Positions 506 through 62,760 of a stretch of 64,000 nucleotides of DNA are shown piece after piece (position 1 is the stretch's first letter; every line of letters starts with the position of its first letter). The notes below the pieces were generated by a model, which had not been told where the DNA came from, ran no database searches, and worked only from the letters and a program-made list of their open reading frames with translations. Both the position numbers and the translations under genes were made by a program. The stretch is from Paraspadella gotoi (Eukaryota > Animalia > Chaetognatha), in the NCBI GenBank assembly GCA_051294375.1, contig CM119269.1:20693665-20757664 (forward strand). Reading direction: 5' to 3'.

Positions 506-844
506 TATTTACCGACAAGATTTTGGGGTGGGTTCGACGGACCGACAAAGTGAATCATAGAGTCGGAATCTGCTGATGAGGAAAATGTAAAGAAAATTGA
601 AGAGAACGAACGGAATCACCGCAGTGGAGGATGAGGAGGAGGAGGAGGAGGAGAAGGAAGAAGAGGGATCGCGGAGGAATTTCAATTTTTACAAAGAGAT
701 TTATCGTCGCACTGTGATCTTTTATCTGGCGAAACTTTCTAGTTCTTCCTTCCTCCCTTTATCTTTTCTCTCCCCTTCCTCCCTCCCTCCTTTTTTTTTC
801 TTTTCTCTCTCCTTCCTCCCTCCCTCCTTTTTTTTTTCTTTTAC

Positions 845-6334: not shown

Positions 6335-6666
6335 CCCTTTTAGTACCGCGACTAAGCGCTCTGATAATGCTTATATAAATTATTAATTGATTTTCGCCAA
6401 TTAAATTACTGATTCAACGTAATTTACCATCAAAAACATAATGAAACCTAAATTTTATCTGAAAAAACTGATTAGACTTTTGACAAGAAAAGAAATAATA
6501 ATATCAATAAATTCAATATATACATTATATACATATTCCAATTAGAGGAGCGCATAATCGAATTTTTAACAACGTAAAAAAGAGAATAGGATTAAAAGCC
6601 CAGGGTTTCCTTTTTCTTTGCGGAGATGGGAGGGAGAAATTCCTGATGACATTTGCATACTGCCGA

Positions 6667-6715
<49 letters not shown>

Positions 6716-8509
6716 ATTCGTACTCACCGACGTCTAACGACGCTCGCGACAATTTGCATAAATGGAAAAAAGACAAAAGAGGATTTCTTTCGGATATAAA
6801 TAAATAAATAAAATAAGGAAAGTAAGAAATAATGAGACAATTGGAATAGATTAACTCGTTAGTCGTTCTGACTTCATTTGCGTGCGATTTGACGGAGTAA
6901 TAAAAATAGTAACAAAAAAAACAACATTTTGATGCGAATAAAGATTCGATTTTGCACCGAAGCAGATGACGTTTAGAACTTAGACTCTGGACCACGAAAT
7001 TCTGGATCATTTTTGATCAAAGCAATTCGATCCGAAGTTAGAGGAAAGGTGAACCAGAGACAGAAAATACGACTTTCTGGGCCAAACAGCCTGAAGTGAA
7101 GCCCGAAGACCACGACTCCCATGGCGGGACAGTGGCGCCGATTATTGGCGCTGTGCTTTTGTCTTTCTGTGGTAAAATTTTTTTGTTTTTACATCCGTTA
7201 TAATAAATATTAATAATAAAATCAAATATTAATAATAAATAATAATAAATAATAATAATAATAAATAATTAATAAATTTCTCGTATTTGTTTATTAAAAT
7301 GCTTCCTTCTCTTAATTTTTTGGTATTTCATTCCTCAGATTGACGCGACGATTGGATGTTCAAGTAGAAAGACATCAACTCACTTGAACATCCAATCGTC
7401 GCGCTCAATCTGAGGAATGAAATTTACCAAAAATTAAGAAGAGGAAAGCATTTTTTAATAAAACAAATACTGAGAAATTTATTAATTATTCGTATTCTAT
7501 TATTTATTATTATTATTATTATTATTATTTATTATTATTTATTATTATTTTTTATTTATTATTATTATTATTAATTATATATTATTTATTATGTATTATT
7601 AATATTTGATTTTATTATTAATATTTATTATAACGGATGATAAAAACAAAAAAATTTTACCACAGAAAGAACAAAAGCCAGCGCCAATAAATCGCGCCAC
7701 TGTCCGCCATGGGAGTCGTGGTCTTCGGGCTTCACTTCAGGCTGTTGGCCTAGAAAAGTCGTTTTTCTGTCTTGGTTCACCTTTCTCTAACTCGGAATCG
7801 AATTTGCTTCATTCAAAAATTGATCCAGAATTTTCGTTGGTCCAGAGCTGTAAGTTCTAAACGTATTCTGCTTCGGCGCGCCAAAATCAGAACTTTATCG
7901 CGGTCAAAATGGTTTTTTTGGTTGCTATTTTTCATTATCACGTCAAATCGCACGCAAATGAAGTCCAGAACGACTAACGAGTTAATCTATTCAATTGATC
8001 ATTATTCTTACTTTCCTTATTTTATTTATTATATTTATATCCGAAAGAAATTCTCTTTTGTCTTTTTTCCTCCATTTATGCAAATTTGATCGCGCGCGTC
8101 GTTTAGACGTCGGTGCGTACGAATCGTTTCTCTCTCTCCCTCTCTCTCTCTCTCCTCTTCTCTCTCTCTCTCTCTCCCTTCGGCAGTATGCAAATGTCAT
8201 CAGAGAATTTCTCACCTCCATCTCCGCAGAAAACGGAAACCCTGGGCTAATTCCTATTCTCTTTTTACGTTGTTTGAAATTTCGATTATGCGCTCCTCTA
8301 ATTGGAATATGTATATAATGTATATATTGGAATTTATGATATTATTATTTCTTTTCTTGTCAAAAGTCTAATCCAGTTTTTTCAGATAAAAAATTTAGGT
8401 TTCATTAAGTTTTGATGGTAAATTACGTATGATCAGTAATTTAATTGGGAAAAACAATTAATAATTTATATTAAGCATTATCAGAGCGCTTATCGCGGTA
8501 CTAAAAGGG
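6335..8509. repeat. ~1.1-kb-arm inverted repeat, probable assembly artefact
   Basis: 7381-8509 is the reverse complement of 6335-7365 with many single-base indels. Confidence 0.9.
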
Positions 8510-11500
8510 TAATCGTAATTTAATGGCGAAAAACCAATTAATAATTTATATAAGCATTATCAGAGCGCTAGTCGCCGGTACTAAAAGAATATTAAAGTAA
8601 TTATTTACATAATTCTCGTTTCTTAGCTTTACAAATAACCTTTCGTCGAATGTGTAAACAAATGCTTTTTGGTTTTCGTCGGCTTGTTAATTCTTCAGTC
8701 GTGATTTTGGCCGATTAAGTAAACATTTTTGTATTCTCCCCGTTTATTCGTTTGTTCACGTTATTTAATATTAATCATAATGAATACTCATCCTCTTTCT
8801 AATATCATTAGGCTAAATAGCATGTCGTCAGTTATTACAGGAGCTTAGTAATAAAGGACGACATGGTGGCATCGGCCCTTGTTCGTCCCCACGTTCTCTT
8901 GTTGCTACTGCCTACGCTTAAGTGGGATGTCGGTGCGAGTTTTTCATGAGCTAATATGTCATATTGATAACGATAATTAGATTAGGTTATTAAGTTATCT
9001 AAGTGGCGGGTGTGTTTAATTGTCCACTCTCCTTCACATCCGCGTGCGTGGATGTAAAGTAGCTATTGCGGTCCTGTCACCTGCAAGCGTGGAGTGGGAG
9101 CTTATGGCTTTACTGGGCTTTGTTGGTATGCCGTCTGCGGAAGTAGACGAAAAACCCCGGCTCAGCAGTGAGCTCTTAACTGCGTCTGCACAGTAGACGA
9201 AAAAACTCACTGCTCAGCGTTGAGACCTCATAACTTGCCGTCCTTGGCGACGTAAAAACCGGAAAACCCCGTTAAAGAGAGGATTACCATTGAAAATATA
9301 TGGAATTCGCCACATAGCGTTCGAACTTTTTTTGTTTGCGCACTTTTTACCCGCATGTGGTCGTTTTTTAATAATAAATCGTTTTCGCTTCCTTGCATTT
9401 GCTATGACAAATGTTGATTGACGGAGGCCCATTAAGCTGGGACCATATTGCCTCTGCAAGTACGGAGGCCCATTAAGCTGGGACCATTTGCCTCTGCAAA
9501 ATGTCGAGGCCCATTAAGCTGGGATAGGTTGTAAAGTTACCTCTTTGAGGAATTAAGATATAAATAGATTGACGAGTGTTTCAATTCCTATATTAGAGAT
9601 GCGTCGACCGCGTCTCTGTTTCTAGGGTTCTTCATACCGTTAATGCATAGATCCGTTTGTGTGAGTTACACGAACGACTATTGGGTGTTTCTAGTTGAAT
9701 TTAGGTTAGTGTAGTTTATAATTTAAGGTGTCCAAAATGGTGAGGCAGGGCGAGAAAAAAATGGGATAAATATGCCCAACAAAATGTTGATTCTATATTG
9801 TATAAATTTTATAATTTTGATTAAAAATTAATATTAAAATGGCCTATCACGAGAGAATAAAAAATAATAATAAGAAATTTCCTCAATCTTGAAACTCAAT
9901 CATATTGCCTCGCTCCCGACGAATGATGATTTCCTCAATCTTTTTAATTCTCTCTCTCGTAACGTTGCCTCTTACATCTCGACGGCGAAATTGGCGAATT
10001 TTTGACCTCTAATTCACGAAGATTTTTCTCACTGCCGGACAGCCTCACATCAGAGCTTCTTTTAAACACGACGAATTGCAGCACGGCGGGAAATCAGAAA
10101 CTAACGCCTTTTCACGCTTAGTTTATTTCTTTGCCGGAAGCTTCCATCGTGAAATTTTTCTCGTTTAAACGTGGAGAGAACGTTTAATTTGACACGATCA
10201 ATGGAGGAATTTTCATTTCTTTGAAAGTCATTTAACAAAAGCGGTTTCATAATAAAACAAATTCGACTGTGTTAGATTACGTGATCATTGTCTCTACGGT
10301 TTGTAAAAATATAAAAATATTCTTGACGGCCAGTTTCGATTCCTGCGACCTTCAACGTCGAAACGATTTTCCCGTGAATCTCTGATCTTTAGTTTAAAAT
10401 TAAACTTCTCCCGGGCGTACGGGAGTCTAAACGAAAGCTGAACAAATCTTTTCTTGTTGAAATTCGATTTCACGATTGTTTGAACTAACTTTCGCGCTTA
10501 ACGCGGCTCTATAAAATCGCATCGTTCCAGTCTATCTACGACGTCATTCATTGTTTTAAATTCCAATGTATGCATCGACCTGCGAAGATCGAAAAGATAA
10601 ACAAACTCGGACATTTCCTTGCATCGACGATAGCCTTTAAGTTTTGCTTCTACAATTACCGTTAAATTTAACGTGATGTTCGTGATTCTGTGGAAAGAGC
10701 TCACGCTTTTCTGTTTATGATACAAAATGTCAAACCGCTGCCAAGATTTTGGACTCTTTTTCATGTAACATTAAGGTGGAAATGGAAATCTTTTGAAGAC
10801 GACGACGACAATGATCGTTTTAATTCTTCATTATTTTGGAACAAGAAAATAGAAATTTTTGCCATTTATCACAATAAAAAGGAAAAGAGCCTTAAAAATA
10901 AACCAAAATAAACTTTTCGTCTTTCATCTCTTAATCTCGAATCTCAATTCTCGAATCTCAAATCTCGGGCTTTCAACTTATCAACTATCGGACGCTAAAG
11001 AAACAGTTTTCAAGATTAAACCGAATTTTCCCTTCTCTACTCTCAATTATAAAACTTCTTCAACTATCAACTATCAAATACCGACGCCAAAGAATCATTT
11101 TACAAAATTCGCATAACAAGGAACCTGTGTCTTCTCCCACACCTGCCTCCTCATGGGTGGTCATGGACCATCTTCATCTTCCTCAACTCCTCACGAGGCC
11201 GGGCCTTTTCGCTCTCAACAAGTTTCTCACGGGCTTGCAACGCTTCGTCCTTTCTGCCGTCTGGGAAATAGTCGCGCGACCGAGGCCGGCGACGAAAAGC
11301 GGGCTTCCACGACCACGGAAGCATTTCGGTTCCCCAGGCTCACGAACGGCAACCGGTTGCGCAGCATCTGGCCAGCAGCGGCGAGGATCGACGAATTTGC
11401 TGTGCATGGAACGCCAGCAGCACGGTCAGTGCCTTTTCTCTTCTTCTCTCTCTCTTCACGTGAAATGGGAAAGCAGCATTGGCGACGGCTTGCAGCCGAC

Positions 11501-14163
11501 GAGCGCACGGTCAATGGAGAAGTTACATCTCTCTTTTCTGGATCGGAAAGCAGCAGCAGCAGCTCCAGTCTTGGAGGAGATACGACGACGACTTCTTTCG
11601 CGATCGTAGAAGCGAAACGGTAGCACGGCGGCGCGGGCCGACCGCCGACCCCTTTCCCCTGGACCAGGTGCAGAATGCCAGACTGATTTTTATCGAAACT
11701 TTAAATTTAAGTTTTGAATGACTTTAACTTAATCGTTTGACCTTTCGATTATATAAACTAGATAAGTGATATAAGGATGTCATCAATAGTATGCTGTTTG
11801 TAAAAATGCACCATTAAATGTTTTAAATTTTGACACCCGGTATTGTAATGTGAAACGTATGTAAATTGGTGTACATTTTGGGGATATGATATGGTTTAAG
11901 TGAAATAGAAATACTGGATTTATTTAGAAAGGCATGAGTATTTGAGTTAGACAAATTTTGACAAATTATTTTAAGCTTAGCTTCACCAGTTCGTGAGTTA
12001 GGTTTATAACATGGTTTAAGAACATTAATGTTATCATAATTTATAAATTCAAATCTTAGAGTACCACTTAGTAATGATATGGCTAATTTATAACTAGTTA
12101 ATTTTATAACTAGTTTACTTGATATAAGAAAAAATATTTTTGAGAAAGATTTAAAGTAATGCTGTGTTAAAATATTTTAAGAGATAACAATGAACTGTAC
12201 AATTGTAAGTTAATATTAGTAGTATATTGATTAGTTTCATTGGGACAATTGAATTTTATATTTTATTTCTATGAAAAGAAATAATCATTTTGATCGCCTT
12301 ACATGGGATACAGGGGTGTGAAACTCGTGAAAGTGTTTTATTCAATTTTCTTAAAAATAAGCATGGAGTATATTAGTATATTTGGTGAATGACATGGTTT
12401 GGCAAATTTAAGATAAAATGTGATTTTTTGGAAGATGGTAAAGGTTAAAGATGACTATATTAATACATACAAACAACTCAAAAAACAATTATATCTTAAA
12501 ATTTTGATACAGTTTATATAAAAGTTAACTGAGTTTGCTGTTCATTTAAATTTTTTAACTGTTTATTTGAACTAATTAAAGAAGTGTAACCTTTTGATTA
12601 TTATTGAAGCATCTCAATTTAATTAGTATAATATATTTATAATATATATTAACTAATAAATATAAAAGTTGGAATACTACATTTGATTTAACTTTAGATT
12701 TTATCCTAGTCCAACTACTGTATATTGAAATAGGATTATATTATTGAAATGGTACAACAAATATAACACTAATTATATTATCTGTTCACTTTGCTGGTTG
12801 TTATTAAACACTTGTCGATCCAACCTTTTGTTTCTGAAACTTTAGAGGACTTGATTTAAACTATTCAACAATTCCTTACGGCTCAAAAGGTCGAGAATCT
12901 CGCTCTGATTACTCTGTTGATTGTGGAGAATGAAATAAGAGAGACAGGAAAACAGGATGTGTAAGAGGATAAAATTGGTGGCCTGTAAAGAGAGTTTGGC
13001 AGAGGTCTGGATGGGGATTCTTGAAAAGAACTTAAGGGTTTAGACCTCTAAGGCTGATAAAATTTTGGAATTAAATTTATTTGGAATTATCACAGGATAT
13101 TTTGACTGACTGTTGATACCAGATGAAAGATGAACATACTTCATGCATTCCTTCAACACACAAACAACGTCATTGGGTGACCTTATACCACCCATGGACA
13201 ATTGGTTAGATGCGTTTTAAAATCATTGTTGGGGAAAATTTGCGTAGAATTACAGTTAAAATTCTCTGATGAGAGTGGTCATGCCATTAAGTCAGAATGG
13301 CCAGAGTACCGTCCGCTTCTAATAAGGCAATGAGGTAAGAAAGACCTACCATCGCTTATGACTATTTTACTGAGTGTTAAATGACAACGACGTCTATGCG
13401 CCCCCATTGGAAAGTTGTTCTCCTTGTTGGAAGACAATTTTTGTCACATTACTTGTTGGCCAGTCTTGTACATGTCTGTTATGGACAGCCATTAGTTTCA
13501 TACTGGGTGCTATGAATTTGTACGTGAGCAGCTGCTACAGCTCTATAGCTATATATTCAAGATAGATTCTTGATCATCACTGCCGTTCTTTATCCCGTCT
13601 TTTCTCAATGCTAGCTGACCAACTATGAATAATGCATCATACTCGTATGCGTCTGCGCAACAGCTCAGATCAATCGACTAGGGAAATGTCTNNNNNNNNN
13701 NNNNNNNNNNNNNNNNATTCTTTTTTGTTGTTTGATTTTTATTAATTAACTAAAGCTAAATGATCAAAAGAGTTTTGATGAAAATGAACTTTTGCGATTA
13801 TGATTATTAAATGATGTCTTTCTATTCTTTTTTGTTGTTTGATTTTTATTAATTAACTAAAGCAAAATGATCAAAAGAGTTTTGATGAAAATGAACCTTT
13901 GCAATTATGATTTTTAAATGATACTCTACCGTAGGAATAAATTATTTTGCCGCCGTTAATTTAAGGGACAAATTATTTATTTTCTTCGTTCCTTTCTTTG
14001 TTATCGCCGTTGTCGTCGTTACAGGTCACGGTCACCGGAAACGCGACGTCTCGGAAGAGGAAACGCTCATGGTTTTGGAGGAAATTATGAAAGGAGGCGA
14101 ATGCGAAAACTTATGCGACGTAGAACTGAAGGTTGGTCTTTCTCTTTCTCTTTTTCTTCTCTC

Positions 14164-14365: not shown

Positions 14366-17300
14366 AGAAGAGTAGAGAAGAAAGAAGAGAAAGAGAAGAC
14401 AACCTCAGTTCTACGTCGCATAGTTTTCGCATTCGCCTCCTTTCATATTTCCTCCAAACCATGAGCGTTTCCTCTTCCGAGACGTCCGCGTTTCCGGTGA
14501 CGTGACCTGTTACGACGACAACGGCGATAACAAAGAAAGGAACTCGAAGAAATAAATAATTTGTCCCTTTAAATTAACGGCGGCAAAATAATTTCATTCC
14601 TTACAGGTAGAGTATCATTTAAAAAGTTCATAATCTGCAAAGGTTCATTTTCATCAAAACTCTTTTTGATCATTTTGCTTTGTTATTAATTAAAATCAAA
14701 CAACTATAATAGGAAAAGACATTCATTTAATAATCATAATCGCAAAGGTCATTTTCATCAAACTTCTTTTGATCATTTAGCTTTATAATAATAAAAATCA
14801 AACAACAAAAAGAATAGAAAGACATCAACTCACTTGAACATCCAATCGTCGCGCTCAATCTGAGGAATGAAATTTACCAAAAATTAAGAAGAGGAAAGCA
14901 TTTTTTAATAAAACAAATACTGAGAAATTTATTAATTATTCGTATTCTATTATTTATTATTATTATTATTATTATTATTTATTATTATTTATTATTATTT
15001 TTTATTTATTATTATTATTATTAATTATATATTATTTATTATGTATTATTAATATTTGATTTTATTATTAATATTTATTATAACGGATGATAAAAACAAA
15101 AAAATTTTACCACAGAAAGAACAAAAGCCAGCGCCAATAAATCGCGCCACTGTCCGCCATGGGAGTCGTGGTCTTCGGGCTTCACTTCAGGCTGTTGGCC
15201 TAGAAAAGTCGTTTTTCTGTCTTGGTTCACCTTTCTCTAACTCGGAATCGAATTTGCTTCATTCAAAAATTGATCCAGAATTTTCGTTGGTCCAGAGCTG
15301 TAAGTTCTAAACGTATTCTGCTTCGGCGCGCCAAAATCAGAACTTTATCGCGGTCAAAATGGTTTTTTTGGTTGCTATTTTTCATTATCACGTCAAATCG
15401 CACGCAAATGAAGTCCAGAACGACTAACGAGTTAATCTATTCAATTGATCATTATTCTTACTTTCCTTATTTTATTTATTATATTTATATCCGAAAGAAA
15501 TTCTCTTTTGTCTTTTTTCCTCCATTTATGCAAATTTGATCGCGCGCGTCGTTTAGACGTCGGTGCGTACGAATCGTTTCTCTCTCTCCCTCTCTCTCTC
15601 TCTCCTCTTCTCTCTCTCTCTCTCTCCCTTCGGCAGTATGCAAATGTCATCAGAGAATTTCTCACCTCCATCTCCGCAGAAAACGGAAACCCTGGGCTAA
15701 TTCCTATTCTCTTTTTACGTTGTTTGAAATTTCGATTATGCGCTCCTCTAATTGGAATATGTATATAATGTATATATTGGAATTTATGATATTATTATTT
15801 CTTTTCTTGTCAAAAGTCTAATCCAGTTTTTTCAGATAAAAAATTTAGGTTTCATTAAGTTTTGATGGTAAATTACGTATGATCAGTAATTTAATTGGGA
15901 AAAACAATTAATAATTTATATTAAGCATTATCAGAGCGCTTATCGCGGTACTAAAAGGGTAATCGTAATTTAATGGCGAAAAACCAATTAATAATTTATA
16001 TAAGCATTATCAGAGCGCTAGTCGCCGGTACTAAAAGAATATTAAAGTAATTATTTACATAATTCTCGTTTCTTAGCTTTACAAATAACCTTTCGTCGAA
16101 TGTGTAAACAAATGCTTTTTGGTTTTCGTCGGCTTGTTAATTCTTCAGTCGTGATTTTGGCCGATTAAGTAAACATTTTTGTATTCTCCCCGTTTATTCG
16201 TTTGTTCACGTTATTTAATATTAATCATAATGAATACTCATCCTCTTTCTAATATCATTAGGCTAAATAGCATGTCGTCAGTTATTACAGGAGCTTAGTA
16301 ATAAAGGACGACATGGTGGCATCGGCCCTTGTTCGTCCCCACGTTCTCTTGTTGCTACTGCCTACGCTTAAGTGGGATGTCGGTGCGAGTTTTTCATGAG
16401 CTAATATGTCATATTGATAACGATAATTAGATTAGGTTATTAAGTTATCTAAGTGGCGGGTGTGTTTAATTGTCCACTCTCCTTCACATCCGCGTGCGTG
16501 GATGTAAAGTAGCTATTGCGGTCCTGTCACCTGCAAGCGTGGAGTGGGAGCTTATGGCTTTACTGGGCTTTGTTGGTATGCCGTCTGCGGAAGTAGACGA
16601 AAAACCCCGGCTCAGCAGTGAGCTCTTAACTGCGTCTGCACAGTAGACGAAAAAACTCACTGCTCAGCGTTGAGACCTCATAACTTGCCGTCCTTGGCGA
16701 CGTAAAAACCGGAAAACCCCGTTAAAGAGAGGATTACCATTGAAAATATATGGAATTCGCCACATAGCGTTCGAACTTTTTTTGTTTGCGCACTTTTTAC
16801 CCGCATGTGGTCGTTTTTTAATAATAAATCGTTTTCGCTTCCTTGCATTTGCTATGACAAATGTTGATTGACGGAGGCCCATTAAGCTGGGACCATATTG
16901 CCTCTGCAAGTACGGAGGCCCATTAAGCTGGGACCATTTGCCTCTGCAAAATGTCGAGGCCCATTAAGCTGGGATAGGTTGTAAAGTTACCTCTTTGAGG
17001 AATTAAGATATAAATAGATTGACGAGTGTTTCAATTCCTATATTAGAGATGCGTCGACCGCGTCTCTGTTTCTAGGGTTCTTCATACCGTTAATGCATAG
17101 ATCCGTTTGTGTGAGTTACACGAACGACTATTGGGTGTTTCTAGTTGAATTTAGGTTAGTGTAGTTTATAATTTAAGGTGTCCAAAATGGTGAGGCAGGG
17201 CGAGAAAAAAATGGGATAAATATGCCCAACAAAATGTTGATTCTATATTGTATAAATTTTATAATTTTGATTAAAAATTAATATTAAAATGGCCTATCAC

Positions 17301-20300
17301 GAGAGAATAAAAAATAATAATAAGAAATTTCCTCAATCTTGAAACTCAATCATATTGCCTCGCTCCCGACGAATGATGATTTCCTCAATCTTTTTAATTC
17401 TCTCTCTCGTAACGTTGCCTCTTACATCTCGACGGCGAAATTGGCGAATTTTTGACCTCTAATTCACGAAGATTTTTCTCACTGCCGGACAGCCTCACAT
17501 CAGAGCTTCTTTTAAACACGACGAATTGCAGCACGGCGGGAAATCAGAAACTAACGCCTTTTCACGCTTAGTTTATTTCTTTGCCGGAAGCTTCCATCGT
17601 GAAATTTTTCTCGTTTAAACGTGGAGAGAACGTTTAATTTGACACGATCAATGGAGGAATTTTCATTTCTTTGAAAGTCATTTAACAAAAGCGGTTTCAT
17701 AATAAAACAAATTCGACTGTGTTAGATTACGTGATCATTGTCTCTACGGTTTGTAAAAATATAAAAATATTCTTGACGGCCAGTTTCGATTCCTGCGACC
17801 TTCAACGTCGAAACGATTTTCCCGTGAATCTCTGATCTTTAGTTTAAAATTAAACTTCTCCCGGGCGTACGGGAGTCTAAACGAAAGCTGAACAAATCTT
17901 TTCTTGTTGAAATTCGATTTCACGATTGTTTGAACTAACTTTCGCGCTTAACGCGGCTCTATAAAATCGCATCGTTCCAGTCTATCTACGACGTCATTCA
18001 TTGTTTTAAATTCCAATGTATGCATCGACCTGCGAAGATCGAAAAGATAAACAAACTCGGACATTTCCTTGCATCGACGATAGCCTTTAAGTTTTGCTTC
18101 TACAATTACCGTTAAATTTAACGTGATGTTCGTGATTCTGTGGAAAGAGCTCACGCTTTTCTGTTTATGATACAAAATGTCAAACCGCTGCCAAGATTTT
18201 GGACTCTTTTTCATGTAACATTAAGGTGGAAATGGAAATCTTTTGAAGACGACGACGACAATGATCGTTTTAATTCTTCATTATTTTGGAACAAGAAAAT
18301 AGAAATTTTTGCCATTTATCACAATAAAAAGGAAAAGAGCCTTAAAAATAAACCAAAATAAACTTTTCGTCTTTCATCTCTTAATCTCGAATCTCAATTC
18401 TCGAATCTCAAATCTCGGGCTTTCAACTTATCAACTATCGGACGCTAAAGAAACAGTTTTCAAGATTAAACCGAATTTTCCCTTCTCTACTCTCAATTAT
18501 AAAACTTCTTCAACTATCAACTATCAAATACCGACGCCAAAGAATCATTTTACAAAATTCGCATAACAAGGAACCTGTGTCTTCTCCCACACCTGCCTCC
18601 TCATGGGTGGTCATGGACCATCTTCATCTTCCTCAACTCCTCACGAGGCCGGGCCTTTTCGCTCTCAACAAGTTTCTCACGGGCTTGCAACGCTTCGTCC
18701 TTTCTGCCGTCTGGGAAATAGTCGCGCGACCGAGGCCGGCGACGAAAAGCGGGCTTCCACGACCACGGAAGCATTTCGGTTCCCCAGGCTCACGAACGGC
18801 AACCGGTTGCGCAGCATCTGGCCAGCAGCGGCGAGGATCGACGAATTTGCTGTGCATGGAACGCCAGCAGCACGGTCAGTGCCTTTTCTCTTCTTCTCTC
18901 TCTCTTCACGTGAAATGGGAAAGCAGCATTGGCGACGGCTTGCAGCCGACGAGCGCACGGTCAATGGAGAAGTTACATCTCTCTTTTCTGGATCGGAAAG
19001 CAGCAGCAGCAGCTCCAGTCTTGGAGGAGATACGACGACGACTTCTTTCGCGATCGTAGAAGCGAAACGGTAGCACGGCGGCGCGGGCCGACCGCCGACC
19101 CCTTTCCCCTGGACCAGGTGCAGAATGCCAGACTGATTTTTATCGAAACTTTAAATTTAAGTTTTGAATGACTTTAACTTAATCGTTTGACCTTTCGATT
19201 ATATAAACTAGATAAGTGATATAAGGATGTCATCAATAGTATGCTGTTTGTAAAAATGCACCATTAAATGTTTTAAATTTTGACACCCGGTATTGTAATG
19301 TGAAACGTATGTAAATTGGTGTACATTTTGGGGATATGATATGGTTTAAGTGAAATAGAAATACTGGATTTATTTAGAAAGGCATGAGTATTTGAGTTAG
19401 ACAAATTTTGACAAATTATTTTAAGCTTAGCTTCACCAGTTCGTGAGTTAGGTTTATAACATGGTTTAAGAACATTAATGTTATCATAATTTATAAATTC
19501 AAATCTTAGAGTACCACTTAGTAATGATATGGCTAATTTATAACTAGTTAATTTTATAACTAGTTTACTTGATATAAGAAAAAATATTTTTGAGAAAGAT
19601 TTAAAGTAATGCTGTGTTAAAATATTTTAAGAGATAACAATGAACTGTACAATTGTAAGTTAATATTAGTAGTATATTGATTAGTTTCATTGGGACAATT
19701 GAATTTTATATTTTATTTCTATGAAAAGAAATAATCATTTTGATCGCCTTACATGGGATACAGGGGTGTGAAACTCGTGAAAGTGTTTTATTCAATTTTC
19801 TTAAAAATAAGCATGGAGTATATTAGTATATTTGGTGAATGACATGGTTTGGCAAATTTAAGATAAAATGTGATTTTTTGGAAGATGGTAAAGGTTAAAG
19901 ATGACTATATTAATACATACAAACAACTCAAAAAACAATTATATCTTAAAATTTTGATACAGTTTATATAAAAGTTAACTGAGTTTGCTGTTCATTTAAA
20001 TTTTTTAACTGTTTATTTGAACTAATTAAAGAAGTGTAACCTTTTGATTATTATTGAAGCATCTCAATTTAATTAGTATAATATATTTATAATATATATT
20101 AACTAATAAATATAAAAGTTGGAATACTACATTTGATTTAACTTTAGATTTTATCCTAGTCCAACTACTGTATATTGAAATAGGATTATATTATTGAAAT
20201 GGTACAACAAATATAACACTAATTATATTATCTGTTCACTTTGCTGGTTGTTATTAAACACTTGTCGATCCAACCTTTTGTTTCTGAAACTTTAGAGGAC

Positions 20301-21301
20301 TTGATTTAAACTATTCAACAATTCCTTACGGCTCAAAAGGTCGAGAATCTCGCTCTGATTACTCTGTTGATTGTGGAGAATGAAATAAGAGAGACAGGAA
20401 AACAGGATGTGTAAGAGGATAAAATTGGTGGCCTGTAAAGAGAGTTTGGCAGAGGTCTGGATGGGGATTCTTGAAAAGAACTTAAGGGTTTAGACCTCTA
20501 AGGCTGATAAAATTTTGGAATTAAATTTATTTGGAATTATCACAGGATATTTTGACTGACTGTTGATACCAGATGAAAGATGAACATACTTCATGCATTC
20601 CTTCAACACACAAACAACGTCATTGGGTGACCTTATACCACCCATGGACAATTGGTTAGATGCGTTTTAAAATCATTGTTGGGGAAAATTTGCGTAGAAT
20701 TACAGTTAAAATTCTCTGATGAGAGTGGTCATGCCATTAAGTCAGAATGGCCAGAGTACCGTCCGCTTCTAATAAGGCAATGAGGTAAGAAAGACCTACC
20801 ATCGCTTATGACTATTTTACTGAGTGTTAAATGACAACGACGTCTATGCGCCCCCATTGGAAAGTTGTTCTCCTTGTTGGAAGACAATTTTTGTCACATT
20901 ACTTGTTGGCCAGTCTTGTACATGTCTGTTATGGACAGCCATTAGTTTCATACTGGGTGCTATGAATTTGTACGTGAGCAGCTGCTACAGCTCTATAGCT
21001 ATATATTCAAGATAGATTCTTGATCATCACTGCCGTTCTTTATCCCGTCTTTTCTCAATGCTAGCTGACCAACTATGAATAATGCATCATACTCGTATGC
21101 GTCTGCGCAACAGCTCAGATCAATCGACTAGGGAAATGTCTNNNNNNNNNNNNNNNNNNNNNNNNNAAAAAAGTGACTTTTAAGCGAGTCGCTCCCTCTT
21201 CTCATAAATGAAAAACGACTTCACACCATAAAATTTTATTCGATTTTCTTTCCTTCCTTCTTCCTTCTTTCCTTCTCTTCCCGCAGAATTTCCAACCGTA
21301 A
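7121..21301 (+). CDS. Small secreted propeptide-like protein (65 aa); exons 7121-7171, 7339-7363, 14025-14131, 21287-21301, split by misassembly
   Basis: Exons join in phase (0,1,0) with GT-AG sites: MAGQWRRLLALCFCLSV|IDATIGCS|SHGHRKRDVSEEETLMVLEEIMKGGECENLCDVELK|NFQP*. Signal-peptide-like N-terminus and RKR site. The last exon lies across a gap and is less certain. Confidence 0.6.
7365..13691. repeat. Copy 1 of an identical 6327-bp duplication
   Basis: Matches 14815-21141 (offset 7450; ORF tracks identical); both copies end in a 25-N gap. Confidence 0.97.
9422..9525 (+). repeat. ~40-bp tandem repeat, ~2.5 copies
   Basis: Unit GAGGCCCATTAAGCTGGGACCAT(A)TTGCCTCTGCAA; also in the duplicate at 16872-16975. 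Confidence 0.9.
13692..13716. other. Assembly gap (25 N)
   Basis: 25 N. Confidence 1.
13717..14816. repeat. Second inverted repeat, probable artefact
   Basis: 14319-14816 is an indel-rich reverse complement of ~13717-14230, which itself includes a ~107-bp tandem duplication at 13717-13925. Confidence 0.9.
14815..21141. repeat. Copy 2 of the identical 6327-bp duplication
   Basis: Matches 7365-13691. Confidence 0.97.
21142..21166. other. Assembly gap (25 N)
   Basis: 25 N. Confidence 1.
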
Positions 21302-31879: not shown

Positions 31880-32010
31880 TGCCGTTGAAGAGTCCTGCTC
31901 TGTATTATCTTGTAACCGGAATGAGGCCCTGCCAAAGTCAGCCTTGGGCAAAATAACTTATTTCTTGATGGAATGGATAATTTCCATAATGGTTGTACGA
32001 ATTTCTTATA
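31880..32010 (+). repeat. Diverged copy of dispersed repeat family R
   Basis: TATTATCTTG...GAGGCC...CCAAAGTCAG...GGATAATTT...GGTTGTAC.AATTTC, shared with copies at 40741 and 44500. Confidence 0.65.
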
Positions 32011-32570
32011 ATATTAATAACACCCAATATCAGCTGATCCAAAAAGGACTCTGGCAAACAAATCCGAAAATTCAAACAAAACCAAAATATGAAGAATCTC
32101 ACAAAAAGATGGAATGGCAAGAAGGAAGAGGACGACGAGGAAAATGACGTCCTTATCTTCATCCAGCAATGAGCATCATCAGGATTTCGACGCACAACTA
32201 ATAACAAGAAAAGGACAATGGCAACACTGATGACGACGTCACAATGACCTCAACAAATGAGACTTCTTCTTAGAAGTCGATTGATATCCATGATGACGAC
32301 GACGACGACGACGAAAAGAATACATCCGAAAAGTAGTCTCCTTAATTATTTCAGGTAAAAAAGTCCTAGTGCTCAGAGGAAAGACGGGTCCAAAGCAACA
32401 AACTAAATCGGCGACTGCTCCAAAATCATAAAAAACAAGTCATTTTTTGGGTTATAACTTAGATAATAACTTAGCAGGACACTGTAAGCTCTCAATGAAG
32501 ACACTCTTAAATGATTTTCACAAAATTCTGACCGAGATACAACGTTGCGCACTATTGCGTTGACTTCGCC

Positions 32571-40575: not shown

Positions 40576-40739
40576 GTTCTTGTTTTTTTTTTTATTCCTA
40601 GAGGCTCTGTCTTTTTGTGTTTTCGCCGTTGACACTAGGGACAATGACAATGACAGTTCGGTTCTTTTTTTTTTTAATTTACAGCCTAATTCTAGGAAAT
40701 ATTGTGTTTAAGTGGAGTAGCTAATTTCGATCTCACATA

Positions 40740-40843
40740 GTGATGGAGGCCTTAAACCACCAAAGCCTGTCCAAAGTCAGGGGCAAGATAGCTTATTTAT
40801 TAAATGAATGGATAATTTTTATATTGGTTGTACCAATTTCATA
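40740..40843 (+). repeat. Repeat family R fragment
   Basis: Near identical to 44680-44783. Confidence 0.9.
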
Positions 40844-44499: not shown

Positions 44500-44800
44500 A
44501 TAGTATTCCCCGATCTAATACTTAAGGGAGTGGTCTTTTCATACAATTGAAACATTCTTTGAAATATTATACCACTTCATTGATAGGGAAGCCAGGTTCA
44601 CTGGGAGTGAATAAACAAGTCTGTGAGAGAGGCTTGATTAAAAGCTTGCAGAAACCTGTTATGTTATTATCTTGCAAGTGTGATGGAGGCCTTAAACCAC
44701 CAAAGCCTGTCCAAAGTCAGGGACAAGATAGCTTATTTATTAAATGGATGGATAATTTTTATATTGGTTGTACCAATTTCATAAAAAATACCAGTGCATG
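44500..44800 (+). repeat. Repeat family R, longest copy
   Basis: 3' part matches 40740-40843 and 31880-32010; 5' part matches the reverse complement of 51288-51470. Confidence 0.85.
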
Positions 44801-45231: not shown

Positions 45232-52041
<6,810 letters not shown>

Positions 52042-56021: not shown

Positions 56022-59000
56022 CTCTTTCTCTCTCTCTCTCTCTCTTTCTGCGCCCTTTTTTCTCTTTCTTTTTCTTTATTTTGTCTTCCAGATGGGACAA
56101 GACCTTTGAACTTTCCCTTCGCTTATTGGCGAAATTCTCTGTGTTTCGCGAGAATCGATTGAGTCTTCAGGATTTGAGCATCGACGTGGTCGTTATGAAA
56201 TTGGCTCACAAGAAGAGTCGCCATTGCGTCGCAGCCGCGCTAGAGGTTTTAACCAGTACTAGCAGTTTTTCAGAAATTCAGCAAGAATGATTTTACATTT
56301 TGTAGTTTAATTTTTGATTCATTTAGTTAATCTCCAAACTTTGCGAAAATGACGCGAGCAAGATCGCCTTCGGCCAAAGGGGCGCCATGACGATGGCACT
56401 CACCTACCTCATGGCGAAAGCCAAACCGCCGGGCAAAGATGGTTAGGCGAGGGCGAGCGGGAAAATTGGGTGGGTAATAGAACTAATATAAGAGAACACA
56501 GAAAGACAAGGAAACCAATTCCATATCAAATTTTTTTTATTCCTTTCCAATGTTTTCTTTCAAATTTTTTTTCCCTTTTTCTTCCATTTTCCATATTTTT
56601 ATTTTATTTTCATTTCCACTTAAATTTCAATCTCTCATTTGGTGCCATCCTCACCGCCGGCAGCGAGTCGCGCATCCAGCCGGAAAAAGGGCGCTTCCCC
56701 CAAGAAAGGAGGGTCGCCAGGAGGCTTCGCTCTTGGCGACGTGGAGGTCGTTCTTCCTCACGAAACAAACTTTGCTATTGGAACAGGTTGTCGATAAAGA
56801 TTGGAGGTGGGGATGATATGGAAGTAATGTACAGTAGGTGTTACTTTCCTTACGAGCATGTGACGTGACGCATTGACGTACCAACACAATTTTCCTTACG
56901 CAGCTTGCCTAGCTTCGCTGACTTCCGGCTGCAGAACGAACGTCTCTCTCGCCTTCGCCAAGGAAAATCTGTCGTTGCTGACGGAATTCCTTAAGGGATC
57001 GATTTTTAAAATTATTTTATTATTTTTATTATTTTATTATTATTTATTAAAATTTGTAATGCATTTTAAAATTATAGAAAGTGTGAATGATTTTATTAAT
57101 CGGTCCTTAAATGCCAAGGCCTTTGCTCCAACGGCCCAAATAGAAAAAGAGGCGGCCACCCTGAATACTTTCAACGTAGTGCGCAACTTGCACGCCGACC
57201 CTGAGCAGACCTTGCTGCTTATGGCTAAGACTAATCTTGTAAAGCAGGTTAGAGTGCTGTCGAAAGTAATTGCATAGTGTGGAAAGTGCATTGTGCAGGT
57301 CATTTTTCGCTTTCCGTAGTCCGTACTGCCATACGTTGAGATTCAGCTAGAAGGCGGCGTCTGCTTTGAGCCGCTCGTTCGCGCGATTGACGTACTGACT
57401 GTCTACTATGTCAACCGCATCCTGATCGAGGGAGAGTGAGTCGGGGAGGGGGGTGGGAGAAGTAGACGTAGCCGTGAGCCGGTAATGTAGGCGTTGACGT
57501 GCACTCGGGGAAATTTACGGTTTAAAGTCGTCTTTTTTTTTCCAATTTTTTTTCCCAAAAATCACTAAAACTATTCCTTTTCGGTTTTACCCCGTATAAA
57601 GATTTAATGATGAATGTAATTATGTTTTACTTGTCAGAGAGTCAGGCGAAGAAAAAACTACTGATATAGAGGAGAGACAAAAGCTGCAGACTCGACTTCA
57701 TTCGATAATTGCCAAGAGTTTGGAGAGCGAGGATCTTCACGTTTGCGTTGCGGGAGCTCGACTTGCCGAATCCCTCGCCAAGTCGCCCGACCGAGGTGCA
57801 GACTCTCATATACGTATTATATCTGTCTTTCTATTGTAAAATTTGGATAAATATTAGGTTGGGAGCCATCAGTTAAGAAATAAAACTATTGTAGTCGGGC
57901 ATTGCCTAGGTTCACCCCGCCTATAAGCATGATTCTTTCAGTTGTGACCCGGTGGCTCATTGAGTAAAGCCATCAGCTCTTGACCACTAGGTACCGGGTT
58001 CAATCCCAACCCGGTACCTACCCTGCGGGAAGAGTGAGGACGGCCGTAAGCCGCCTTGGGGGTGTGGCAAGCCCTCAAGCCTGGTTCCAAGCCCAGGTCC
58101 CGTTCCATGTCTGCTAGAGGGGGTTATAGCAATTACGGATAGTCATCTTCTGCCCACTTAGCGCCTTTTCCACACTATTATAGAATCTGTAGAATTTTTT
58201 GACCAGGCGTCGCCCTAATTGACGACGGGATTGTCGACATTCTTTGGAACAGATTCCGCTCTTCTCTTAAAGTATTTCCAAAGTCGATGCGAAAGCAGAC
58301 GGAACGTTGCTTGGATCACATTCTTGGTTGTAACCTCTCGTTGAAGTACACAATTTTGGGCAGGTCTTTACTTTCGAAGGGTGGATTAACACTATAGCAT
58401 ATTCGAATCGGCGAAATAACTAGAGATTTCCTCGACAAGACTAACCTCCTTTGACCGAATTGGCGACTATTTTGACGACATTGGAGCCAAACTCGATGCA
58501 GAAGATGCAAGGCGTCTACTTCTGGGGATGGAGACGAAGATTCGCCAGGTGAGCGTTCTCCGGTAGAAGCTTGTCGGATGGGATAAATCAGGCTCTTAAA
58601 TAGGTAAAGAATAGTAAAAACGGACGCGATGGTGGCCGACTGAAGATTGCACCATCTAACTTCGTTTCACCTCTGTTTCTTCTCCCGAGGTAGCCACGGT
58701 ATAGAGAAACGGTAGTCGTTGACAAGGGAACGACGAGGAGGACCATTGTTGAAGAGGTTTTACTCGAGGACGAAGGCGAGGACGAGGGGAAAGGCGAAGA
58801 CGAGGAAGACGGGGACCAAACAGGTTCTATTTATAATCATTTACGCTCGCATTTAGCATTTTTAAATCTCCCATAAAATGCCATTATAGTATGGCAGTTT
58901 CAACTGTCAAAGGAGACTCCCTATGTTGCTCGAGACAAGGCGCTGGACCCTCTGCGGTCGCCCACCTACTATGGTCATTGAATCCGACTACATTATGCTT

Positions 59001-61231
59001 GCCAGGCTGTAACCGGGAGTTGAACTCGAGACCTATTTGACAAACGTAATGCGATTTTAGGACACCGTAACCGTCGACTTTAACCATAAAGAGTATTACC
59101 ATTAGTAGTAAGAACTTAAAGCGCCATCATAATTTTAATTTTTGTGGCAGAAACGCCCGCGATCAATATTTTGGTCCCGACGGAAGAATTTCCTCCCGTC
59201 GCCATTACTTCACCTAGGTGGATAATTCAGTGAATGACTTATTTTTCTTAGACATTGTATTCAGTGTTATTTCTATTTGTTGCGTTTGAGTTAGTTTTTA
59301 ATCAGGTGATAACGAGTTAGTTTTGCGCTGACGAAACAGATCCATTTTTTATAAAAAAAAAAAAGCAAAGTAAAGTAATCTCGCCAAAAAAAACTTGTTA
59401 CTTCGAAATTTTCGATAAATTAATTTTTAATTAAATAAAATTTTTTTCAAATAAAAAATTGATGGCAACAGCCGGGTTGCCTGAGATGCCCATTGGAATG
59501 GGACATCACTTTGTTGGCTTTAAGGGCTTCCGACATTCAGTGACTCCTCCTGTCACTGGAGCGGTTACCCTAGGACGGTCTCGCTTTGCAAACGCAGAGG
59601 GAAGTCGGTAGGACTGTTGACAGAACGCAACGGTATTGGCTGAACGGCGGTGGATGCGAGGCAGTGTGAATATACCGCTGCATAGTGATGATAAATTGAT
59701 GCAATGATAATGAATTAATGATGTGATGATAACAAATTAATGATGCTATGATAACAAATTATTGATGCGATGATATGAATTACTGATGGGATGATAACGA
59801 ATTATTGATGCAATGATTAACAAATTATAGTTGCGATGATATTGCGAATAGGCAGAGGGGGAACACACCATCCCAGGCGTTGTGTTCCTTCCACAGTCCT
59901 TACGAATTCCCTGTGTTGGCAAAGCAATACCATCCTTGGGTAACCCCGCCAGTGACAGGTGGCGTCACTGAGATTCAGTAGCCCCCAAAGTCAACAGTGA
60001 GATGCCCCATCCCAATGGGCATCACAGGCAACCCGGCTGTTGCCATAAGGTATCATTTTATCTTTATTTTTAAATACTTTTCTAAAAGTGGGACTCCACT
60101 TGAACCTAAACCGGAGAAACCCGAGAAGAAATACATCGAAATCGAAAACGATCCTACGCTTTTGACTCTGATTGATCACGTCCTGTCCAAACTCAAGAAT
60201 CTTCCGAGAATCGAGTGGAAAATCAAGTGTCTGGCTATTTTGGTATTTATCAAGCTTATCAATTTATTATTTTATGAATCAATCTAATAAAATATCTCTC
60301 TTTAAATCGTGAACTCGGCAAAACGTTTTTTCAGCATTTCTACGGCAGACAAACTCTTTCATTCTTTCGAAGGTCTTTTATCAGTTTGGGGGACGATTGT
60401 TGCCCGACGAACTCTTTGCTGATGATTTCCGTGAGCACCTTCGCGATCTGGTCGAAGAAACCTTAGATTATCGCGTAACGATCGGTTCGATTTCTAAAGG
60501 AGTCGCATATCACAGAGCGTTATTATTCAAAGGTTACTAACTGGTCAACAATTTATTACTTTGAGGTTTAGTTTCCATTTAATATAATATGTTCCTCCAA
60601 CTTTCGCAGTGTTAGCCGATGAGCTGCTGATCCCGTGCACTCTTATACGAGGGGATTACTTTCGAGCTTGGAACGAAATATGGTTAATGCGCTCGGCTAA
60701 ACGGGTCGTAGCCACTGACAGACTCAGGTTTAAGAACTGTTATTTAATTTTTTTGTACATGATTTTGTTTTATATTACACAGTGTGGTGGTCTGAAGAGA
60801 TAAAGTGGTTTGATTTTTAGGTGGATGTTACACGATGATGTGAATAGTGATCCAAAGACGAAAGAAGAGATACCAGAGCTTGCTGGATTTGAGGAATTTA
60901 CATCAGTCGTGGCAAAGGTTTCCTTTTGTCTATTTCTTGCTTTTTTGATTGAAAATTTCTTTCTCAGTATTCAGTTCTGGTGATATGTGAATAATTTATT
61001 TCTAGTAATGACTGCTCATTATGAGTGTTCAATAACTCATCCGTTAACTTGATTTACTTCGTCTGAATCCGCCAGGGCGCGCCTCCAGACTCTCTCTGTG
61101 TCTCCTTAGCTATGGCGATGGCGATTCAAACTCAATTCCTCAAGATTTTATTGTATGACGATCGTACAGCAAAGGAACTTCTGAGCGCACAGCCGCCTCC
61201 TCCGATCATTGACATCGAGGCGAAACTGGAT
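53744..61231 (+). CDS. ARMC3: Armadillo repeat-containing protein 3-like (ARM repeats plus C-terminal EDR1-like domain), multi-exon; 3' end unresolved
   Basis: N-terminus PASVSLLLPSTETLVLLDALESFKKFV|GKSIRNKELFL...LVNHED resembles ARMC3; ARM-like exons at 54.5-58.4 kb; IGSISKGVAYHRALLFK|VLADELLIPCTLIRGDYFRAWNEI (60481-60680) is the EDR1-type signature. Confidence 0.85.
57890..58174 (+). mobile_element. Solo-LTR-like element (285 bp) with internal tRNA-derived Pol III promoter
   Basis: TGT..ACA termini; perfect 4-bp TSD CTAT (57886-57889, 58175-58178); A box TGGCTCATTGAG (57953) and B box GGTTCAATCC (57997); homologue at 49984. Confidence 0.8.
58885..59098 (-). mobile_element. Decayed tRNA-headed element related to 45648-45904
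   Basis: Flanked by CCAT/CCAT; minus strand has B-box-like GAGTTCAACTCCC and a GAGGGTCC..GC.CC hairpin shared with the 45648 element. Confidence 0.5.
59464..60044. mobile_element. Non-autonomous DNA transposon with ~170-bp TIRs and AT flanks (ISL2EU-like)
   Basis: GGCAACAGCCGGGTTGCCTG.GATGCCCATTGG.ATGGG at both ends inverted; AT on each side; internal ~22-bp TGATGC.ATGATAA repeats (59684-59845). Confidence 0.85.
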
Positions 61232-61769
61232 GTAAGACTCGTTTCAAAAATGTCATTTAAAAAAGTATTGGTTCGCAAAATATAAACATTTAAAAAAATA
61301 TTTAAAGCATAAAGATCGTCGCAATCGCAAAGCAAAAGTCTGGACCCATAAAAAATTAAATTTGATATCGGAAAACTAAGTAACAAACTTCGCCTAATAT
61401 AAAAAAATAAAAAAAGCTTAAAAGTATAAAATCAAAACGAATATTCAATGGCAGATGAACAAACGGATACCAAAAAAAATTAGAGAAGTAAATCAAGAAA
61501 GAAACAATAGAAAAGAAGAGAAGCAAGAGAGCAATTGAAAAAAAAAGTTATTAAAAATAAAATAATTGGTTTTATGAGATAAGGTTATCTTTCAGCTGCA
61601 TCGTCATAGCTAAAATTACTGTAATTAACAACTCTTGGACCTGAAATAGAGCCAAACTTCGTCAATGGGGTGGGTCAGAAGTTTGATTTGGGAACCTTTC
61701 CAAATGAAACTTCATACATTTCTGAGAAAACTTTCAATGGAGCAAAATTTTCTAAAATGGCAAGAAGCA

Positions 61770-62140
61770 TTAGTAATTAATTTTTTAATATTTATTTATA
61801 GATAGGAAATGTCAAAAAATTTTTTTGGAATTTTTTATTTTTAAAAGCAGATTCAAATAGCTTATGAAAAGTTATCTACACAAAGTATAATTCTTTTTTC
61901 AATATTTTGATGATAAGTGGGTTTAAATTGAGAAAAACCTTAAAAAATCATCATCATCATCATCATCCGATGATTTTAGCAGTTTTTACTAATTTTTAGT
62001 AATAAAACATCAAAATTTTAAAAAGTTGTAATTATATTTTTTGCTTTACTTTTTAAGCTCTATCAGAATCAATTAAAAAAACTTAAAGTATACAAAAAAA
62101 ATTTTTGACATTATATAGCAATATAATAATATTAATTAGC
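61770..62140. mobile_element. Degenerate AT-rich foldback MITE
   Basis: AATGTCAAAAAATTTTTTT (~61808) is inverted at ~62094-62112; TAGTAATTAATT vs ATTAATTAG; AGCTTA vs TAAGCT. Confidence 0.5.
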
Positions 62141-62760
62141 GAATTACTCATGGTTCGGAACATTTTTGCAAAAAAATATTTTAACACAATAATTAATACC
62201 AATAATGGATTAGTTTAATGCTGTTCCCATTAAAATTTGAATTTGGTCGGCTACCGCTACCTGAAATGGTCCTTTTGTTAACCAGTCGTCCTCCGCGGTA
62301 GAGCTCGAACGCGCCCCTTCCCGAGTATGCCACTGCATCGATCACAACGACTCTAACCAGGTCGGCCCGCGACAGAAGACTGAATTCCTCATATTCAGCC
62401 ACTTGGTTTACTACTCGATTCTATCAGTGCGGCTGTTGCGACCATTGCCCGGGCTGGGTCCCGCCCCCGACGCATTTCCTGGCAGAAACTCAGGCCGGTC
62501 GGCCGGAAGAAGAGTCCCCGTTTCAAGGTCCTCCGGGGAAGTTTGTTGTCGACCTCTGTTACTATCCTGCGCGAATAATTTCCGATTTGGACGCGGAGAA
62601 GATAAAGTACATGCATATTTGAGCTCTTGTCTTGGCCGCTGTCACTTTTTTTTTGGTTATTTTATGATTAAATTAACTCTGAAGAGACTTTCATTGAATC
62701 GTAGCAATAAGTTTTGATGCCAGTATGTAGAATATTTTTTGAGGCGATTAATTTCATCTC

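Follow-up and report, generated by a model that had tools for sequence, protein, structure and literature searches.

A type-P5 twister fold in a solo LTR of a high-copy, Helenus-like element of the chaetognath Paraspadella gotoi

Introduction

The long terminal repeat (LTR) retrozymes described so far are plant elements based on hammerhead ribozymes (PMC4918200), and a 2020 review describes metazoan retrozymes as having no LTRs, no primer-binding site (PBS) and no polypurine tract (PPT) (PMC7761336). Small LTR elements with promoter boxes of the tRNA type are known as Helenus, a group of TRIMs (terminal-repeat retrotransposons in miniature) whose A box reads TRGCY...YGG; in the accessible text of that work the word "ribozyme" occurs only in a reference title (Kojima 2024, PMC10886601). 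Here we describe a 285-bp solo LTR containing a type-P5 twister fold in a 64,000-nucleotide stretch of the Paraspadella gotoi genome (GCA_051294375.1, contig CM119269.1, positions 20,693,665 to 20,757,664, forward strand), which was analysed whole and is called the window. A first-pass annotation of these letters had proposed a twister-like ribozyme within an LTR, 3' of a head for RNA polymerase III (Pol III), as a parallel to hammerhead retrozymes. The reading that we favour, that of a solo LTR from a likely Helenus-type TRIM with a complete type-P5 twister, the full element likely being an animal retrozyme, is in our judgement evenly poised between true and false.

Within the open-access literature, Repbase not being covered, we found no twister in an LTR element, no ribozyme in Helenus and no dimer-dependent genomic twister. 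The twister/LTR combination is likewise undescribed in the accessible parts of PMC8501958, PMC7761336, PMC5680766, PMC10085705, PMC13570524, PMC8557442 and bioRxiv 10.64898/2026.07.22.740005.

Results

The LTR copy at 57890-58174 (copy A) contains the pairings of a type-P5 twister, and the placing of a twister-like fold inside an LTR by the first-pass annotation is supported. The features concerned are as follows.

57890..58174 (+): copy A, the 285-bp solo LTR (TGTAG...CCACA) of a Helenus-like TRIM present in high copy number (loose-end pile-ups)
57886..57889 (+): left target-site duplication (TSD), CTAT
58175..58178 (+): right TSD, CTAT
57953..57964 (+): A-box-like TGGCTCATTGAG, fits TRGCNNA (motif search)
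57997..58006 (+): B-box-like GGTTCAATCC (motif search)
58032..58097 (+): type-P5 twister fold, predicted cut U58047/A58048 (Rfam alignment, explicit pairing, descriptors)
58032..58040 (+): P2 strand (58032, 58034, 58035; 58033 bulged), catalytic G-A (58036-37), T1 strand GGA (58038-40)
58041..58046 (+): P1, loopless palindrome CGGCCG (Rfam alignment)
58047..58054 (+): UAA cleavage strand, P2 strand GCC, T2 strand GC
58055..58079 (+): optional P3 hairpin, 8 bp, variable 9-nt loop
58080..58097 (+): P4 (5 bp) and L4 UUCCAAGC, with the partners of T1 (58086-88) and T2 (58091-92)
58117..58121 (+): downstream GAGGG, not the catalytic strand (P2 0/4 in that assignment)
49984..50223 (+): solo LTR copy B, decayed, with the A-box region deleted, a twister core at 50081-50146 with two P4 mismatches, and flanks GGTC/GGTT

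A local scan with the Rfam model Twister-P5 (RF02684) aligned 58033-58096 at 15.7 bits (gathering threshold 37.6; E 0.76 over all families). The alignment pairs the upstream GAGGA, whose GGA meets the UCC of L4, and the 22-nt insertion formed by P3 falls outside the model. The covariance-model check that had been proposed, with the absence of a hit as a refutation, thus ended halfway: a Twister-P5 alignment exists, yet it lies under the curated threshold. The Rfam models for twister-sister and for the P1 and P3 types gave no match at E<=10 over 57850-58250. Explicit pairing gave three of three T1 pairs (G58038-C58088, G58039-C58087, A58040-U58086), the third being A/U where the Rfam model has G/C on both strands, and two of two T2 pairs (G58053-C58092, C58054-G58091). 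P4 is Watson-Crick at all five pairs and closed by G58084-C58093, the 8-nt L4 has U58085 and A58090, and P3 is paired at 8/8. The UAA is formed by U58047, A58048 and A58049, with the catalytic G-A (G58036, A58037) on the opposite strand. Departures from the twister consensus pairing are limited to P1 and P2. P2 consists of U58035.G58050, G58034-C58051 and, across the bulged 58033, G58032-C58052, making three pairs and a single bulged nucleotide in place of the canonical 4 bp, and we filed the fold as a variant. Within a monomer, P1 can form 1 bp that closes a 4-nt loop; when two copies join, it can form a duplex of 6 bp, with a self-duplex energy of -10.7 kcal/mol.

In the rice twister Osa-1-4 no substitution was tolerated at G13, G30, A46 and G48 (PMC5113685). 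The corresponding residues here, G58053, G58091, A58037 and G58039, are all kept. Among 1,948 scored natural twisters, imperfections in P1, P2 and P4 were tolerated and pseudoknot defects were not, the accessible text speaking of type-P1 candidates (PMC11662667); P1 is dispensable for twister activity, and the catalytic G has a general-base role (PMC5408937). We hold with high confidence that the region is a twister-derived fold, and the twister of copy A is, as predicted from the fold, probably able to cleave. The self-cleaving ribozyme that defines the LTR of an LTR retrozyme would thus be represented here by a predicted structure.

The motifs first noticed were located as described: CCG-UAA-GCC-GC at 58044-58054, an 8-bp hairpin at 58055-62/58072-79 (seven Watson-Crick pairs and one G.U), CCUGG-UUCCAAGC-CCAGG at 58080-58097 with a stem of 5/5 Watson-Crick pairs, and GAGGG at 58117-58121. 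Their assembly had to be revised. The fold opens at 58032, 11 bases before the proposed start at 58043; the topology, given earlier as P1- or P3-type, is type P5 in both the Rfam alignment and the pairing descriptors; and the strand that carries T1 and the catalytic residues is the upstream GAGGA (58036-40) and not the downstream GAGGG, which leaves P2 without pairs. Since the upstream GAGGA is the catalytic strand, the G-to-A mutant in the downstream GAGGG suggested earlier would be the wrong control.

We then considered the host of the fold, which is very probably an LTR/TRIM element. Contigs of runs X1, X5 and X6 defined the LTR ends, by their coverage and by pile-ups of loose ends, as 57889/57890 and 58174, the end at 58174 also being seen in run X9. 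The numbers of contigs aligned to the LTR were 5112 (X1), 2634 (X5), 2501 (X6) and 503 (X9), and the summed contig depth was 10^5, compared with ~25 in the flanks, a figure that is not a copy number. Integrase targets are expected to show mirror symmetry, and the loose-end consensus of the two sides was weakly mirror-symmetric (agreement ~0.4, among 24 of 1,139 rows listed). A joint in run X9 skips 57794-58204 (411 bp), which is not a clean empty site and may represent an allele without the element. One junction joins the LTR end to a tRNA-Trp-like PBS, matching 16 of 18 bases of the PBS in Fig. S2 of PMC10886601. Judged from the sequence, the TG...CA ends, 4-bp TSD and A and B boxes fit an animal Helenus TRIM, and the full element is likely of the Helenus type.

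The A- and B-box-like motifs at 57953 and 57997-58006 precede the fold, which bears out its proposed position 3' of a Pol III head. The ribozyme lies 30 bases past the B box, and no T-run was found between the two in copy A or copy B. We predict that Pol III probably uses these promoter boxes. A strong hairpin at 57989-58019 (GGTACCGGG...CCCGGTACC) surrounds the B box of copy A and is weaker in copy B. The Rfam scans of the window gave no hammerhead match.

Copies A and B are 78% identical over 202 aligned columns. Copy B keeps UAA-ACC-GC, the hairpin (with one A.C mismatch), UUUCAAGC and GAGGGA, as had been stated, but only three of its five P4 pairs; its T1 carries a C-to-U change of a tolerated kind (cf. 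PMC5113685). The earlier description of the copies as decayed holds for the copy at 49984 and not for that at 57890.

A second, otherwise unrelated repeat in the window, which we call family 2, was flagged independently by Rfam Twister-P5, at 25.8 bits at 40739 and 25.6 bits at 44679. Its two twisters are as follows.

44678..44721 (+): loopless type-P5 twister of family 2 (Rfam, descriptors)
40739..40781 (+): second family-2 twister, 5'-truncated at the motif start (Rfam)

Family 2, a very abundant non-LTR repeat of ~270 bp, lacks A and B boxes; its A-rich 3' end is fixed near 40843, and its twister lies ~100 bases from that end. It shares the unusual features of copy A, namely a P1 that is palindromic and has no loop (AGGCCU) and a P2 that is short and bulged. 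No variant of >=3% fell inside the family-2 core among the variants listed from the four runs. Copies in the window lie at 44518-44785 (+), 40739-40843 (+), 51289-51471 (-), 31928-32014 (+) and 32461-32507 (-); the copy at 51289 ends about where that at 40739 begins, and a few family-2 contigs show head-to-tail joints. Family 2 is a candidate for a Naiad pseudo-LTR or for a twister-type non-LTR retrozyme. Naiads have been published as lacking hammerheads, which would fit family 2.

Chance expectation was estimated with descriptors that were all written after the motif had been seen. A loose P5 descriptor gave five matches in the window, two of them AT-rich noise, compared with 0.13 per shuffle (60 shuffles). 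A permutation-free descriptor gave two, compared with 0.19 per shuffled 64-kb window (365 shuffles), and matched 21 of the 154,064 sequences made by dinucleotide-shuffling the 285-bp LTR. The strict descriptor, which demands Watson-Crick pairs in T1, T2 and P4 and the P1 closing pair, retained two matches in the real window (copy A and one family-2 copy) and none in 846 shuffled windows. Outside the window, the sequence pattern was matched by 0 and 1 viral contigs, 0 and 0 genome contigs and 11 metagenome contigs; the 11 metagenome loci matched the pattern alone, none of them keeping the pairings or passing the permutation-free descriptor (0/11). A covariance model built here (R1) recovered, within the window, the four copies that it was trained on and no others, and placed none of 12 outside loci above 10 bits.

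In an unguided alignment of four copies from the LTR family and family 2, six of 22 pairs were changed on both sides (two in T1, one in T2, one in P1 and two in P4), compared with none in the rival minimum-energy hairpin, and 89% of cells paired, compared with 18-56% in slid controls. Variation within the LTR family was assessed with contigs from the four runs aligned at 80% identity, which gave 31 variant rows at >=5%; the polymorphic set comprised 22 positions, six copy-A-only differences and two rows with a small minor letter being removed. Within the twister core, polymorphism affected one of 52 constrained and four of 14 free positions (Fisher p=0.006). The sole varying constrained position, 58050, changes U.G to U-A and remains compatible with pairing, and at the bulged position 58033 the family has A, C or T.

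Published Helenus sequences (supplement of PMC10886601, as far as available) were also inspected by eye. The LTRs of Helenus-2_SyJa and Helenus-2_SyUm carry a complete type III hammerhead right after the tRNA-like head, its loops I and II being complementary over ~12 bases; both have a tRNA-Trp PBS and no T-run after the head. The same supplement gave no twister L4 in context (13/13 CCAAGC places), where line breaks can hide motifs.

Several further features of the window were noted. A cell-fusogen gene of the EFF/AFF type is represented by two exons at 47222-48009 (+) (Pfam PF14884, E 5.9e-11 and 3.7e-5; EFF-1 structure match E 1e-5), an OATP transporter gene by an exon at 762-1085 (-) (PF03137, E 3.9e-17), and there is a weak Pfam match to an EDR1/CTR1/ARMC3 peptidase-like domain at 60313-60537 (+) (E 4.4e-5, below cut-off). 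The EFF/AFF and OATP exons point to an animal with introns, and the distribution of these genes to a nematode or some other invertebrate; two protein searches aimed at placing the host found no match. A direct duplication of 6,327 bp with 100% identity, at 7365-13691 and 14815-21141 and with inverted pieces at its edges, may be very recent or an assembly artefact. Long inverted repeats of 67-83% identity at 6335-8509, 50282-50733, 59462-60046 and 61748-62172 are probably foldback elements or resemble miniature inverted-repeat transposable elements; that at 50282 begins 59 bases past LTR copy B.

Discussion

The fold and its host suggest a route of replication modelled on the plant LTR retrozyme, the analogy first drawn from hammerhead retrozymes and one that we accept. 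Pol III would start near 57945 in the 5' LTR, meet no T-run before the ribozyme and continue across the interior as far as the 3' LTR. The twisters of both LTRs would cut at U58047/A58048 and release a unit-length RNA without terminal repeats, bearing 5'-OH and cyclic-phosphate ends, which a host ligase would circularise. With tRNA-Trp as primer, a reverse transcriptase of the Gypsy type would copy the circle past unit length and so rebuild two LTRs, and an integrase would insert the copy with a 4-bp duplication. The Pol III, cleavage, circle and reverse-transcription steps are all inferred by analogy with plant retrozymes (PMC4918200), and on that analogy the circle route has about the same chance of being right as of being wrong. 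Because P1 is palindromic, the ribozymes of two LTRs may be able to pair and cut jointly, with the lone ribozyme of a circle staying off, to which we give somewhat less than an even chance; P1 being dispensable in twisters, a cutting monomer whose P1 has 1 bp is equally possible. In its full form, the idea of an animal LTR retrozyme that is driven by a Pol III promoter of its own and has a twister cutting only if both LTR copies of one transcript pair through P1 is rather unlikely.

A number of observations weigh against the retrozyme reading. Copy A is not an Rfam RF02684 member, its 15.7 bits standing against 37.6, and its site is unlisted at E<=1 in the whole-window Rfam scan. The minimum-energy monomer fold is a competing hairpin that occupies GAGG, P2 and T2, and the folding energy is no better than that of shuffles (z -1.13). 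This hairpin may be an off state or may be real evidence against activity, folding programs ignoring pseudoknots; as a conserved structure it was rejected, with no double changes in its own helix and three of eight pairs broken across rows. Six double-changed pairs were reached by 103 of 500 shuffles, and the covariation compares two lineages that were each picked for twister likeness, so it is supporting and not conclusive. Constraint on the core relative to the rest of the LTR is non-significant (1/52 vs 17/185, p=0.13), as is the contrast in differences between copies A and B (core 10/66, outside 34/136, p=0.15). On the side of the element, the head does not score as a tRNA in Rfam or ARAGORN, though A and B boxes are present, and the TTTT of copy A at 58166-69, which is missing from copy B and from the PBS junction, could stop Pol III before the PBS. 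The PBS itself comes from one junction in two runs (X5, X6) of one study, among 12 of 57 rows listed, and the window holds two solo copies only, with no two-LTR copy or PPT seen.

Other accounts of the region can be judged against the same data. A type-P1 or P3 twister built on the GAGGG at 58117 could draw on the pairing of its GGG with the UCC of L4 (G-C, G-C, G.U) and on the retention of GAGGG in copy B and in the family contigs. That wiring was nevertheless ruled out on its P2, with none of four pairs; its P1 forms two of five (one Watson-Crick, one wobble) with G.G at the closing position, the permutation-free descriptor yields the P5 order alone, and we attach almost no weight to it. Very unlikely, too, is the view that the region holds no ribozyme and consists of another tRNA-like unit, a tRNA-Tyr whose variable arm is long, or of hairpins arranged by chance. 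ARAGORN does call a tRNA-Tyr(GTA) at 58011-58107, P4/L4 looks like a T arm and the Rfam twister threshold is not reached. We rejected the call: its cloverleaf is poor (acceptor 5/7, T stem 3/5, no U33), two of its pairs rely on the copy-A-only bases A58033 and T58098, and ARAGORN makes no tRNA call in copy B. The Rfam tRNA model finds nothing at E<=10, and family 2 retains the twister pairings without any tRNA resemblance.

Granting a twister, its role may differ from the one proposed. The LTR could have captured it from another retroelement of this genome, family 2, which may be the end of a Penelope-like Naiad, and carry it silent or dispensable through ordinary Helenus TRIM replication. Family 2 matches the unusual architecture, with 26 invariant columns, and is more abundant (10,620 vs 5,112 contigs in run X1), the compensatory changes could be older than the capture, the core is not significantly more conserved than the rest of the LTR, and the minimum-energy fold is an inactive hairpin. 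Six pairs differing on both sides, together with an 8-bp P3 inserted exactly in an allowed slot, show that the LTR twister is no recent copy of family 2; moreover, polymorphism inside the core keeps away from the paired and the catalytic positions (p=0.006), and wasp Helenus shows another ribozyme class at the same LTR position (by eye). We consider capture of a passenger improbable, and place at the same low level the idea that an active twister stands in for a Pol III terminator. There, cutting would be required of the 3'-LTR copy only, and the resulting linear RNA, whose terminal repeat would measure ~100 nt (from the start near 57945 to U58047), would be replicated by ordinary strand transfer with no circle. 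Thirty-two of 37 Helenus LTRs have >=4 T soon after the tRNA-like head (by eye, PMC10886601 supplement parts 7 and 9, as far as available), the ribozyme sits in the place of that T-run, 30 bases past the B box, the two hammerhead-bearing wasp LTRs likewise have no T-run, and the competing hairpin could make 5'-LTR cleavage partial. Yet the 5' and 3' LTR copies have the same sequence, so that one-sided cutting needs a reason; three of the five Helenus LTRs without a T-run have no ribozyme visible by eye; and the sole studied class of ribozyme-bearing LTRs yields circles (PMC4918200).

If the fold cleaves, the retrozyme strategy would be independent of one ribozyme class and of plants, there would be a concrete explanation of the way in which an LTR element driven by Pol III sets its RNA ends, and an abundant twister form missed by the Rfam threshold would acquire a testable role. 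If cutting also depends on pairing between LTRs, both cuts would be coupled and the one-ribozyme circle stable, natural dimer-dependent twisters would exist, and ribozyme-bearing Helenus would have arisen at least twice, with a twister here and a type III hammerhead in gall wasps.

As a ribozyme, the fold shares with type-P5 twisters (RF02684; class review PMC5408937) the strand order, UAA, catalytic G-A, T1, T2, the closing G-C of P4/L4 and the U and A of L4. Unlike typical members of RF02684, it has a loopless palindromic P1, a 3-bp bulged P2, a long P3 and a sub-threshold score. The minimal type I hammerheads of Penelope-like elements have, like P1 here, a helix cut to a short palindrome that is completed by two copies (PMC6765202, PMC7761336); they belong to another ribozyme class and are dimer-dependent, whereas dimer dependence is only a possibility for our twister, P1 being dispensable. 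The T-variant twisters of Perere-3 from Schistosoma mansoni are also altered-P1 twisters inside a retroelement (Liu et al. 2021, PMC8501958). Perere-3, however, is a non-LTR element with a 5'-terminal type-P1 twister whose P1 depends on the TSD, in contrast to the internal, self-contained P5 form in an LTR described here.

As an element, the LTR shares with the Helenus TRIMs/TRIMp3 (PMC10886601) TG...CA ends, a 4-bp TSD and solo LTRs, and has A- and B-box-like motifs and a putative tRNA PBS. Most of the Helenus LTRs inspected end soon past the T-run, whereas here the head lies near the 5' end and is followed by ~170 bp with the ribozyme fold; Helenus-2_SyJa and -2_SyUm share the layout of copy A, with the hammerhead replacing the twister (by eye). 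Plant LTR retrozymes (PMC4918200) have in common with our element a ribozyme in an LTR of ~300 bp, a 4-bp TSD, a PBS (putative here), many solo LTRs, no coding capacity and a presumed Gypsy partner. They differ in having a type III hammerhead and not a twister, in their host, which here is an animal, in the internal A and B boxes found here, and in a tRNA-Met PBS where ours is tRNA-Trp-like; the plant class yields circles. By this analogy the Paraspadella gotoi element likely works like a retrozyme while not being a member of the class as defined, since its ribozyme is a twister and not a hammerhead.

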